A DNA stretch of 4,919 bases, taken from positions 1 to 4,919 of IMG/VR virus record IMGVR_UViG_2703718769_000001; one strand, written 5' to 3'. Every line of letters begins with the position of its first letter. Within the stretch, counting starts at the first letter, position 1. The translations under genes and the position numbers were made by a program. This document shows, one piece after another, positions 306-4,919 of the stretch. Source of the stretch: a virus (Duplodnaviria; Heunggongvirae; Uroviricota; Caudoviricetes). The notes under the pieces are model-generated. The model searched no databases. It was not told the DNA's origin and saw only the letters and a program-made list of their open reading frames with translations.

Positions 306-842
306 CTACTCCCCATTGATGCTGACATTAACGCCAGCTTTGCGAATCTCATCGGCGCATCTGTTGATAATATTTCTGTGAAACTCACAAAAAATTTTCG
401 CCGACTGCGGCCCTAATGGGTGAACATCTTGCGCACGCGGCAGCACAACCTCCCGCGCCTCCAGCTCAGAAATCCGCTTCTCTGCTGCTTCCAGTTCAAC
501 ACGCAGCTTCCCTACCGTAAGAGCAATTTCCTCGTTCTCCTGGTCGCGGCGTTTGATGTATTGCTGTTTTCTTTCCAGCTCATCCAGCAGCGCCAAGACG
601 GTAGCCGGATTGGCTGCGGCGATGAATTCAGCATTGGCCTGCTGTTCCATTTGGAAATCTTCATCGAAACCGCTTTCTGGATGCGCTCCTTCAATTCTGC
701 AAATGGGAAGATATCCAGCAACTTCACGATGAATTAGCGCATCATCACCATCAAATCGGCCCTCTCCATATTCGAGCGACCACTCGCCACACGTTGCTTT
801 CTCTGCCTTTTCACGCAGTGCCTGATAGTCAATCTTGCTCAC
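306..842 (-). CDS. ead/Ea22-like lambdoid early protein with central coiled-coil (178 aa)
   Basis: GTG start at 840-842 preceded by AAGGAGG at 6-nt spacing. Translation MSKIDYQALREKAEKATCGEW...ANPATVLALLDELERKQQ... resembles the ead/Ea22-like family as recalled from memory; not verified by search. Confidence 0.55.
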   Translation of the reverse strand: MSKIDYQALREKAEKATCGEWSLEYGEGRFDGDDALIHREVAGYLPICRIEGAHPESGFDEDFQMEQQANAEFIAAANPATVLALLDELERKQQYIKRRDQENEEIALTVGKLRVELEAAEKRISELEAREVVLPRAQDVHPLGPQSAKIFCEFHRNIINRCADEIRKAGVNVSINGE

Positions 843-1323
843 TGGCCGCCTCCTTCATAAAAATAATCCAGTGGGTCTTGTCACCTTTTCCTGTTCGTTG
901 ACCGATAACAGGCTTTCTGTCGGTCAGTGCCAATATCTGGCGAACAGGTATTTGCGTTTCATTCCATTTAAAAATCAGAACGCCGTATGGCCGCAACACA
1001 CGAAAGGCTTCTTTAAATCCCTGCCGCAAATCATCACGCCAGGTATCTTTATTCAGCCGTCCATATTTCTTTCCCATCCAGGCGTTATCACCAACACGCT
1101 CAAGATGCGGAGGGTCGAATACAACAACCGGAAACGATGCGTCTGCAAATGGTAATGCACGAAAATCTGCTATCAGGTCAGGGCTAATTATCAGCCGTCG
1201 TCCATCACATAATGTGTGCTCTTCCTTTCTGATATCGCTAAATATCGCCCGGTCGTCATTCTTATCGAACCAGAACATGCGACTGCCACAGCACATGTCG
1301 AGGATAGCTGCATGTCCAGTCAC
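829..1323 (-). CDS. Small SAM-dependent methyltransferase, probable phage orphan DNA methyltransferase (164 aa)
   Basis: GTG start at 1321-1323 overlapping the upstream TGA stop (GTGA), AAGGAGG 6 nt upstream. Contains a motif-I-like segment ILDMCCGSRMF and a motif-IV-like VVVFDPPH about 60 residues later, then LIFKW and QRTGKGDKTHW. Precise class (N6-adenine, N4-cytosine, MT-A70-like) cannot be resolved by eye. Confidence 0.6.
   Translation of the reverse strand: MTGHAAILDMCCGSRMFWFDKNDDRAIFSDIRKEEHTLCDGRRLIISPDLIADFRALPFADASFPVVVFDPPHLERVGDNAWMGKKYGRLNKDTWRDDLRQGFKEAFRVLRPYGVLIFKWNETQIPVRQILALTDRKPVIGQRTGKGDKTHWIIFMKEAASEQD
849..855 (-). promoter_or_regulatory. Shine-Dalgarno AAGGAGG for the ead/Ea22-like gene
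   Basis: Minus-strand AAGGAGG lies 6 nt upstream of the GTG start at 842. Confidence 0.6.
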
Positions 1324-1718
1324 TGGTTGCCTCCTTTGCGAAGCTGGGCGGCTAACTCGTCACATATGTGCGTCAAAGAGCAAAGTTTGATTGATGGATG
1401 TTCGCGCATCATCTCTACCCCCTGCGCCCGCACTTCAGCCAGGAAGGCGTCGGTGGCCGGGGTTTTGCAGGACATTTGAATTGCCTTCTCTGTGTATAAA
1501 ACACCCGTTCGATTGGCGGTATACATGATGGTGTTTACAGCATCTTGATGTGCTGATTTCACAGCCTCAACTTCAGCAGCCAGCGCCGCGCACTTGGCCT
1601 CCGCTTCAGCAAATTTACGCACCAGATATTCAGCGTTTGTTTCGTTAACCTTTAAATCACTTGGGATGCATTTACCTTTCAGAAATCCATCCATCTCAAT
1701 TAGTGTCATTTGTTTCAT
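1320..1718 (-). CDS. Hypothetical coiled-coil protein (132 aa from ATG at 1718; track gives a GTG-start version to 1736)
   Basis: ATG at 1716-1718 overlaps the TGA stop of the upstream small ORF (ATGA coupling); GGAG/GGGAAG upstream. Translation [16 protein letters not shown]...[18 protein letters not shown]...; no family recognised. Start choice is uncertain. Confidence 0.5.
1330..1336 (-). promoter_or_regulatory. Shine-Dalgarno AAGGAGG for the methyltransferase gene
   Basis: Minus-strand AAGGAGG lies 6 nt upstream of the GTG start at 1323. Confidence 0.6.
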
Positions 1719-2688: not shown

Positions 2689-3162
2689 CTAGAACGGAAT
2701 ATCCGAATCGTCGAAGTTCATAGGTGGTTCGCTGTGATTCCCATGCTGCTGAGATTGCTGTCTTTGTTGCTGGCCGTTATTTCGCTGAGGTGAAGACTGT
2801 TCATTGCTTCCTTGCTTGCCACCAAGCATTTGCATGGTTCCACCAACGCCCACGATAACTTCGGTAGTGAACCGATCCTGTCCGCTTTGATCCTGCCATT
2901 TTCTTGTCCGCAATTTTCCTTCAAGATAAACCTCAGAGCCTTTTCGCAGATATTCGCTGGCAATTTCTGCCAGTTTCCCGCTCATTACCACACGGTGCCA
3001 CTCCGTCTGCTCCTTTTGCTCTCCAGTTTGCTTATCACGCCATTGTTCTGACGTAGCAACTGTAAGGTTTGCAAATGCCGTTCCTGATGGTGAATATCTG
3101 ATTTCTGGATCATGCCCAAGGCGACCAATAATGATCACCTTATTTACGCCTCTGCTTGCCAT
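2689..3162 (-). CDS. ssb: Single-stranded DNA-binding protein, phage-encoded (157 aa)
   Basis: Translation [23 protein letters not shown]...[52 protein letters not shown]...DDSDIPF shows an SSB OB-fold core, Gly/Gln-rich linker and acidic C-terminal tail ending DIPF. ATG immediately follows the TAA of the upstream gene. Confidence 0.9.
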
Positions 3163-3870
3163 TTATGCCGCCTGTTTTAGCTCGTTAACTCTGATGTTCA
3201 TTACCTGAACGCATTTAGCCTGCGCCTCCTCGTTTCCAGCCATTAATTGCCAGTCACGCTGATAACGCTCGATGAGTTTTTTCTTGTCAGTTTCTGTTGA
3301 CGCATAATCGCTGAAGTCTTTCAGGATTTGTTCGCAGTCAACCGATGGAGATTTCTGGTTGGTATTTTCTGGTGATGGTTTGTTATCTGATGCTGGGATT
3401 GCCCATCCCGGCAGCGATGGAGGGAGCCAGTAAAATCCTGTTCCATCCTTCAGTTTTGCCCTGTGCCACCCCTGCTTTTTATCGAGAGATGTTTGTGCGA
3501 AACCTTCCTCAAGGTTATACAGATACCGACCGATTCCCCACTGAACGGCAGCGCGCTTCATTGCACCGGAACGACCACCTTTGACGGCTTCTACCTGCGT
3601 GTTTTCAGCAGCATCCCATTTGGTTACCCATTCGGAATCAATCTTTATTGATATGCCGCATTCAACGCCGCCGTTGTTGGGAATATCGCGGTATTCATTG
3701 CGCCATCCTGCTTTGCCGCAAACATCGTCCAGGCGTTTCATGATTGCCCGGTTCGTGACATAAGCCAGCACCATAGCCCACACCTTGCCATCGCGTGTTT
3801 TACCGCTTTGCTGTATTCGCCATTCGATATCTTCAGGGCTGAATGGCTCATCGAATTTGTTCAAATCCAT
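3163..3870 (-). CDS. Rad52/Sak-type single-strand annealing protein, phage recombinase (235 aa)
   Basis: ATG at 3868-3870 with GAGGTG upstream. N-terminal FDEPFSPEDIEWRIQQ...AMVLAYVTNRAIMKRLDDVCGKAGWRNEY matches the pattern recalled for phage Rad52-family annealing proteins; sits directly upstream of ssb. Family assignment is from memory. Confidence 0.65.
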   Translation of the reverse strand: MDLNKFDEPFSPEDIEWRIQQSGKTRDGKVWAMVLAYVTNRAIMKRLDDVCGKAGWRNEYRDIPNNGGVECGISIKIDSEWVTKWDAAENTQVEAVKGGRSGAMKRAAVQWGIGRYLYNLEEGFAQTSLDKKQGWHRAKLKDGTGFYWLPPSLPGWAIPASDNKPSPENTNQKSPSVDCEQILKDFSDYASTETDKKKLIERYQRDWQLMAGNEEAQAKCVQVMNIRVNELKQAA

Positions 3871-4124: not shown

Positions 4125-4277
4125 TCATTTCCTGCGATACCACGGAAGGTTGATAGCTGATTTCATCGCTTTATTTGCTTCAAGCCACATTTTGGAATCA
4201 CCAATAAATCTGGCTATTACTGCTTTGTTCTGTGCAGCGCGAAGCATCTGGTGATTGATGTCTATTTCATTGCGCAT
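4125..4277 (-). CDS. kil: Kil-like host cell-division inhibitor peptide (50 aa)
   Basis: ATG at 4275-4277, overlapping the 3' end of the cIII homolog by 16 nt. Translation MRNEIDINHQMLRAAQNKAVIARFIGDSKMWLEANKAMKSAINLPWYRRK; the IA.FIGD.KM..EA core resembles lambda Kil as recalled, and the position right after cIII matches lambda. Confidence 0.55.
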   Translation of the reverse strand: MRNEIDINHQMLRAAQNKAVIARFIGDSKMWLEANKAMKSAINLPWYRRK

Positions 4278-4393
4278 AATAAGACCTCAACTCTTTTCCA
4301 TCCGTCACGTAATTTACGGGTGATTCGTTCAAGTAAAGATTCATTTAGTTGGAAGGCACCCATGCGAGCGCCTCCCGCGATTGCGTAAATCAT
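4262..4393 (-). CDS. cIII: cIII homolog, FtsH/HflB protease inhibitor (43 aa)
   Basis: ATG at 4391-4393 with AAGGAA 7 nt upstream. Translation MIYAIAGGARMGAFQLNESLLERITRKLRDGWKRVEVLLCAMK contains the ESLLERITRKLRDGWKR helix recalled from lambda cIII. Below the track's 60-aa cut-off. Confidence 0.8.
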   Translation of the reverse strand: MIYAIAGGARMGAFQLNESLLERITRKLRDGWKRVEVLLCAMK

Positions 4394-4417: not shown

Positions 4418-4919
4418 TTAGTAGGTTATTTTTGTTGCGAATACTTCGCCTTTTACGATGGCTGTTATGATATTTTTAGCAACATCTTCTGATGCACCAA
4501 CCTTGATAAGGTCAGCAAGTATTTTGTTATTTACTTCTTTCCGGTGAGCTTTATCCTTTGCTCTACGCTCTTCTTCGTCCTTGATTCTTTTTTCTTCTGC
4601 TATTCTGGCTTGCTCTTTTGCTTCAGCCTCGCGCCGGATTCGTTCAGCCTCCTCCTGTGCTTTTCGGCGTTCTGCTTCAATTGCCGCATGCTTTTCTCTT
4701 TCAGCTCGTTCTGCTGCCTCTTTTGCTTCGCGCTGTGCTCGTTGCTCGGCTTCAATGCGTTCACGCTCTGCACGTTCCGCTGCGGCCTTAGCTTCTGCTT
4801 CTCGCCTTGCTGCTGCTTCAATTTCGGCTTTTGCCTTTGCTTCGGCTTCTGCTCTGGCTTTCTCTTCAGCTTCTCTTTTTAAGCGTTCTTCATGTGAACC
4901 GCCCCGGGAATCCTGGAGA
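4418..4919 (-). CDS. Charged low-complexity coiled-coil protein, 5'-partial (start beyond window end); superficially TolA domain II-like
   Basis: Minus-strand frame is open from the window edge for 166 codons to tandem TAA TAA at 4415-4420. Translation ...EAEEKARAEAEAKAKAEIEAAARREAEAKAAAERAERERIEAEQRAQREAKEAAERAEREKHAAIEAERRKAQEEAERIRREAEAKEQARIAEEKRIKDEEERRAKDKAHRKEVNNKILADLIKVGASEDVAKNIITAIVKGEVFATKITY. Not in the ORF track because no start is in the window. Confidence 0.55.
   Translation of the reverse strand, partial: LQDSRGGSHEERLKREAEEKARAEAEAKAKAEIEAAARREAEAKAAAERAERERIEAEQRAQREAKEAAERAEREKHAAIEAERRKAQEEAERIRREAEAKEQARIAEEKRIKDEEERRAKDKAHRKEVNNKILADLIKVGASEDVAKNIITAIVKGEVFATKITY
4540..4890. 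repeat. Low-complexity pyrimidine-rich (plus strand) cryptic simple-sequence tract, GCTTC/GCTGC-type units, encoding the E/A/R/K repeat region
   Basis: Visible reiteration of gcttc, gctgc, ttctgc and cttttgc motifs; all three frames on both strands are low-complexity, which explains the spurious track ORFs 4544..4882(+) and 4600..4821(-). Confidence 0.6.
4895..4919. repeat. Right copy of terminal inverted repeat (tgaaccgccccgggaatcctggaga)
   Basis: Inverted partner of 2-26 (23/25). Lies inside the 5'-partial coiled-coil ORF. Confidence 0.8.

Follow-up and report, generated by a model that had tools for sequence, protein, structure and literature searches.

A stretch of phage DNA of 4,919 bp, referred to here as the window, carries on its minus strand an open reading frame (829–1323) for a protein of 164 amino acids with Asp-Pro-Pro-His at the position of methyltransferase motif IV. 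Canonical amino-methyltransferases have the motif (D/N/S)PP(Y/F/W), be they of the beta class (N6_N4_Mtase, PF01555, e.g., TTHA0409/2zie and M.RsrI), the gamma class (N6_Mtase, PF02384, M.TaqI and HsdM) or the alpha class (Dam/MethyltransfD12). Measured against these families the histidine is indeed unusual, as a preliminary description of the window had pointed out. That description took it as a possible sign of a divergent substrate or an inactive decoy, and named a sequencing error (CAT being one substitution from TAT) among the findings that would refute it. The question is which of these applies, and what kind of enzyme the gene encodes.

The gene and its prophage setting

The reading frame was found to be intact, and its product contains VVVFDPPHLERV. 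Translation starts at a GTG codon, and a strong Shine-Dalgarno sequence, AAGGAGG (1330–1336, minus strand), is located 6 nt upstream. Motif IV, Asp70-Pro71-Pro72-His73 (1105–1116, minus strand), is encoded by GAC CCT CCG CAT read from 1116 to 1105, and the DPPH tetrapeptide is thus real. RefSeq lists a gene with 99.8% identity and identical boundaries under the name "class I SAM-dependent methyltransferase."

The window represents part of the pL (early-left) operon of a lambdoid/P22-like prophage of enterobacteria, with every gene on the minus strand. Phages IME10, Sf6, N7, and HK75 as well as many E. coli prophages match it at 94–98% identity. In the order of transcription, the genes for CIII (4262–4393), Kil (4125–4277), a Rad52/Erf-type annealase (3163–3870), SSB (2689–3162), and the anti-RecBCD protein Abc2 (1890–2186) were identified by Pfam and by matches to phages and E. 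coli. Between ssb and abc2 lies a Cys-rich ORF of 159 amino acids (2200–2679) with several CxxC pairs; related phages label it "endonuclease," "HNH endonuclease" or hypothetical, and it had no match in Pfam or PADLOC.

Directly upstream of the methyltransferase gene, an ORF of 138 amino acids (1320–1736) without a match in Pfam or PADLOC ends in a stop codon that overlaps the GTG start (GTGA), which suggests translational coupling. We considered this ORF as a conserved partner of the methyltransferase and rejected it, since other prophages hold a different gene in the same slot, which is therefore a mosaic cassette. Downstream, the start of an Ead/Ea22-like gene (306–842; Pfam Ead_Ea22, 1.5e-34) overlaps the 3′ end of the methyltransferase gene by 14 nt. 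No cognate restriction endonuclease gene is adjacent, the neighbors being Ead/Ea22, the hypothetical ORF, abc2, ssb, and erf, and the methyltransferase is in this sense an orphan. A sister prophage carries the anti-restriction gene ral, and in Streptococcus phages the methyltransferase homologue adjoins replication genes.

Both outermost genes, an ORF at 1–301 and a coiled-coil gene running from about 4430 to the end of the window (both minus strand), are truncated by IS insertions. The ends of the window, 1–26 and 4895–4919, form a 25-nt inverted repeat that is 92% complementary. The right-hand copy corresponds to the terminal repeat of an element of the IS3 family, presumably IS629/IS1203-like, with 40,904 occurrences in 4,175 E. 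coli genomes; one genomic match that was checked adjoins an IS3 transposase gene that contains a programmed frameshift. Two outward-facing IS copies thus enclose the window, a piece of prophage that is probably a short-read contig broken at the IS repeats.

Fold and motif order

The structure was predicted with AlphaFold. We used the model based on a multiple sequence alignment (pLDDT 93.6, pTM 0.88), as a single-sequence model reached a pLDDT of only 48. It consists of a single Rossmann domain (residues 6–157), in agreement with the preliminary remark that the protein is small and has no obvious target-recognition domain. Strand beta-1 (7–9) is followed by a Gly-rich loop and beta-2 (26–30) by an acidic residue, which together with the seven-stranded Rossmann-like fold are the features of a class I methyltransferase. 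A hairpin (34–46) comes next, and beta-4 (64–69) leads directly into DPPH; a long helix (95–109), beta-5 (110–121), and beta-6/7 (138–156) complete the model.

The SAM-binding loop of motif I, ILDMCCGS (residues 7–14; 1282–1305, minus strand), aligns to motif I of PH0226 and of Methyltransf_25. Asp30 (1234–1236, minus strand), at the end of the modeled beta-2, is the predicted SAM ribose-binding acidic residue, judging from the architecture of class I methyltransferases. The block of helix and beta-5 that reads FKEAFRVLRPYGVLIFKW (residues 103–120; 964–1017, minus strand) matches the C-terminal end of Methyltransf_11. In model and alignment, motif I (7–14) precedes motif IV (70–73) within one domain that lacks a target-recognition domain, which is a gamma-like order, and a profile alignment with Trm11 places His73 on the Tyr of motif IV. 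As modeled, this is a pared-down class I Rossmann methyltransferase whose motifs follow the gamma-type order and which has no separate target-recognition domain.

Only Methyltransf_11 (22.2 bits against a cutoff of 21.2, a marginal match) and Methyltransf_25 (19.5 bits) were found in Pfam at E ≤ 10. At the same threshold N6_Mtase, N6_N4_Mtase, MT-A70, Dam, MethyltransfD12, and RsmD/Cons_hypoth95, among them the amino-methyltransferase families that the preliminary description had proposed for comparison, were all unmatched. NCBIfam gave nothing above cutoff, and none of the PDB chains was a family member by sequence. Strong matches came from the phage and defense collections: PHROG 954, "DNA methyltransferase," matched at 1.5e-88, and the REBASE-derived models of PADLOC matched at 3e-74 (MTase_II, PDLC03288) and 6e-50 (orphan oMTase, PDLC03730).

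In common with the canonical amino-methyltransferases, the protein has a Rossmann fold of class I, Asp-Pro-Pro following beta-4 as the core of motif IV and, presumably, the chemistry, in which the exocyclic amino group of a flipped base is methylated. It differs from them in having His for the aromatic residue, in the missing target-recognition domain and in the loss of several helices of the standard fold, and the profile match to 2zie reached only E = 1.3. The small-molecule methyltransferases of Methyltransf_11 and Methyltransf_25 (e.g., PH0226, 1ve3) have no DPP-X motif IV, and their match is limited to the SAM-binding half and the helix-beta-5 block. The reading frame itself, PHROG, PADLOC, the AlphaFold model, and RefSeq together point to a minimal class I SAM-dependent methyltransferase of the DPPH family that is discussed below.

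Conservation of the histidine and distribution of the family

A search of 5.8 billion proteins resulted in 7,821 homologous clusters (90% identity), and an exhaustive HMMER scan of 1.84 billion representatives at 50% identity gave 2,082 matches at E ≤ 1e-3, with 246 at E ≤ 1e-30. DPPH was found in 257 of 266 homologues that were retrieved and aligned. Of the 264 with residues at the fourth position of the motif, 262 carry His, the exceptions being one DPPY and one EPPS. The homologues come from phages of Proteobacteria, Firmicutes, Actinobacteria, and Bacteroidetes. When the search was seeded with a streptococcal sequence, DPPH was present in all homologues (120/120), including those named M.NgoMXV.

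An alignment of 60 sequences (40–87% identity) had D30, P48, all four residues of motif IV (D70, P71, P72, and H73), E105, R108, V109, G114, K119, W120, and P138 invariant, and L8, D9, C12, G13, and D53 nearly so. The most variable parts were the indel-rich hairpin 31–47 and the loop 74–95. Judged from these alignments, the histidine is the defining residue of the family and is strongly constrained. Its retention across phyla is incompatible with a sequencing error and with loss of function in one lineage. The preliminary description had treated the residue as an oddity unless His should turn out to be common in a characterized active subfamily; it is the rule, at about 97–100%, in a family with a characterized active enzyme (see below).

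One homologue with 91% identity to the window protein (P0004), which represents a cluster of 43 sequences, reads DPPY through a single CAT to TAT change. Either Tyr may be tolerated at this position or that representative may contain an error.

The great majority of family members are encoded by phages or prophages, within replication or early modules. By tblastn it was found in phages of Streptococcus, Vibrio, Acinetobacter, Porphyromonas, Listeria, Gordonia, Enterococcus, Lactobacillus, and Staphylococcus at about 45–65% identity, and among the complete E. coli genomes 945 of 5,426 carry the gene, that of O157:H7 being one of them.

Some homologues are longer. Their N-terminal extensions are heterogeneous, resemble miscalled starts and had no match in a Pfam scan. 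Many enterobacterial homologues carry a conserved C-terminal extension of about 90 amino acids (...RIxELExLLL...LPAHHQRRLKHHINRMWLEK...), an unrelated tail that likewise had no Pfam match; examples of 248–251 amino acids are P0009, P0064, and P0115, from Leclercia, Enterobacter, and Klebsiella, and P0117. A few other homologues (P0068 and P0138) end in zinc-ribbon-like CxxC...CxxC tails. The C-terminal tails could be add-on DNA-binding modules or gene fusions.

Relation to M.NgoMXV and probable function

M.NgoMXV/M.NgoDCXV (AJ004687), reportedly described by Radlinska and Piekarowicz in 1998 and by Radlinska, Bujnicki, and Piekarowicz in 1999, is an atypical orphan DNA m4C methyltransferase of the gamma class. 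M.NgoMXV was called an "unusual" gamma-class m4C enzyme and its catalytic Asp was established by mutagenesis, according to work referred to in a review (Bujnicki and Radlinska, 1999; Radlinska and Bujnicki, 2001, cited in PMC3874165). Methylation of cytosine-N4 is rare for an enzyme of the gamma order (review PMC3874165).

The connection to the window runs through a streptococcal prophage. In the preprint on the S. iniae QMA0248 genome, QMA0248_1949 is given as 95% identical to the orphan gamma-class m4C methyltransferase M.NgoDCXV (AJ004687, GCCHR), which in a REBASE-derived table is the only enzyme with the site GCCHR. According to the same preprint, prophage Phi1 extends from the integrase gene QMA0248_1936 onward and is 99% identical to the SF1 prophage; by its locus number, QMA0248_1949 would lie inside Phi1. 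The SF1 prophage (Javan272) was found to contain exactly one methyltransferase gene, the 15th gene after the integrase. Its product, Javan272_0015 (Streptococcus phage Javan272, L003:2986-3447), contains DPPH, and the window protein is 50% identical to it over 151 amino acids (E 2e-55). From the locus position we infer that Javan272_0015 is the S. iniae prophage methyltransferase that was reported as 95% identical to M.NgoDCXV.

Database names agree with this. A homologue in pneumophage IPP22 is noted as "N-4 cytosine methyltransferase M.NgoMXV," and JGI/IMG, NCBI submitters (for S. pyogenes) and UniRef (for S. equi) likewise use the name M.NgoMXV for streptococcal members. On the basis of sequence comparison we place the window protein in the M.NgoMXV family, the link being the 95% identical homologue and the database names and not AJ004687 directly. 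Members of this family resemble the window protein in size (about 150–165 amino acids), motif order, DPPH and the absence of a target-recognition domain, and they too are orphan and phage-borne. The window protein belongs to an enterobacterial branch, which differs from the M.NgoMXV-like proteins in the variable hairpin 31–47 and the loop 74–84, and since these parts differ its recognition site may differ as well. The earlier suggestion of a divergent substrate was thus partly right, in that the characterized relative methylates cytosine-N4.

Two other enzymes were considered and rejected. NgoAXV of the gonococcal methylomes is a GGNNCC m5C enzyme and not the same as M.NgoMXV. The product of cds16 of pneumophage SpSL1, labeled "N-6 adenine methylase" although m6A was not detected, belongs to the beta class, has DPPY and falls outside the family. 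No GCCHR m4C enzyme is listed in a survey of the restriction-modification systems of 25 gonococcal strains, and the original M.NgoMXV clone may therefore be of streptococcal-phage origin or the result of a very recent transfer. A search of the literature for a DPPH motif in methyltransferases found no report. The DPPH family is large and little studied, and apparently only one member has ever been characterized, around 1998–2001.

Altogether, we favor, with a probability of roughly 0.65, the reading that the product is an active M.NgoMXV-type orphan DNA methyltransferase, encoded in the pL operon of a lambdoid/P22-like prophage, and that it most likely makes m4C and serves in anti-restriction. 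The ILDMCCGS loop, Asp30 and Asp53-Phe54 would form the SAM-binding site. The enzyme would flip its target base, with Asp70 and the backbone carbonyl of Pro71 hydrogen-bonding the exocyclic amine and His73 stacking on the base in the slot normally taken by Tyr, Phe or Trp. By homology the product would most likely be N4-methylcytosine in a short degenerate site, GCCHR in the characterized enzyme, and DNA would probably be contacted through the hairpin 31–47 and the loop 74–95. Since CI represses this early operon, the gene would be off in the lysogen and expressed early in lytic growth, after induction or infection, when the methyltransferase could pre-methylate replicating phage DNA against host restriction enzymes. 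The S. iniae lysogen was found to have no GCCHR methylation (QMA0248 preprint), which fits expression restricted to lytic growth and fits an inactive copy equally well.

More tentatively, the invariant His and the face formed by E105, R108, K119, and W120 might be what lets a gamma scaffold of about 155 amino acids without target-recognition domain flip a base and methylate cytosine-N4 in a degenerate site of 3–5 bp. Such an enzyme would be a minimal "broad-spectrum" anti-restriction methylase that phages have spread across at least four phyla. The enterobacterial branch could have a new specificity or could act on replication and recombination intermediates (ssDNA) alongside SSB and Erf. We consider this extended version doubtful as a whole.

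Asp-type DPP motifs are more typical of m6A enzymes, m4C enzymes usually having SPP(Y/F). An active phage DNA methyltransferase that makes N6-methyladenine, or that is nearly nonspecific for sequence, is accordingly the foremost alternative to m4C at a GCCHR-like site. The combination of Asp-Pro-Pro with gamma motif order is typical of m6A enzymes (review PMC3874165), relaxed specificity predicts the absence of a target-recognition domain, and an identity of only 50% to the M.NgoMXV-like proteins leaves room for another base (m6A instead of m4C) and another site. However, enterobacterial and streptococcal members show no variation at any residue of the catalytic face (DPPH, E105, R108, K119, and W120 among them), which argues for the same chemistry, and the sole characterized member is an m4C enzyme. 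We therefore regard this alternative as unlikely, if worth keeping in mind.

It is still less probable that the substrate is not DNA at all (rRNA or tRNA guanine-N2 or adenine-N6, a protein glutamine or a nucleotide signal) and that the DNA methyltransferase labels reflect annotation transfer. The RNA m2G methyltransferases Trm11/TrmG10, Trm14/TrmN, and RsmC/RsmD, with D/N-P-P-Y/F in motif IV, are among the nearest structural and profile neighbors, and it is only this similarity, which is not significant (E 0.16–0.33), that suggests such a substrate. These enzymes carry THUMP or other RNA-binding domains and are encoded by cellular housekeeping genes, whereas the window gene is phage-borne, like nearly all of its family, in modules of the kind where orphan DNA methyltransferases sit. 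The characterized member moreover acts on DNA.

A catalytically dead decoy, or a DPPY enzyme altered by sequencing error or mutation (CAT from TAT), is in effect refuted by conservation: the DPPY representative and the decay of a prophage cut by IS elements at both ends speak for it, but the near-universal His recurs in independent assemblies and in many phyla. Conservation across phyla extends to the SAM-binding residues G13, D30, and D53 and to the catalytic D70, the ORF is intact with its Shine-Dalgarno sequence, and a family member is active.

The gene is thus an ordinary, uncharacterized member of a known family that was recognized as atypical more than two decades ago, rather than a system of a new kind. 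Temperate phages have spread this very large family across phyla, yet standard annotation describes it only as "class I SAM-dependent methyltransferase." To recognize the genes in E. coli and Salmonella prophages as being of the M.NgoMXV type would be of use for annotation and for phage-host restriction biology, and leads one to expect phage-specific m4C marks that the methylomes of lysogens would not reveal. What remains of interest is the role of the conserved His, the specificity of the enterobacterial branch and a family without a solved structure, which may serve as a compact model of DNA reading in the absence of a recognition domain and of the part played by a histidine in the aromatic slot.
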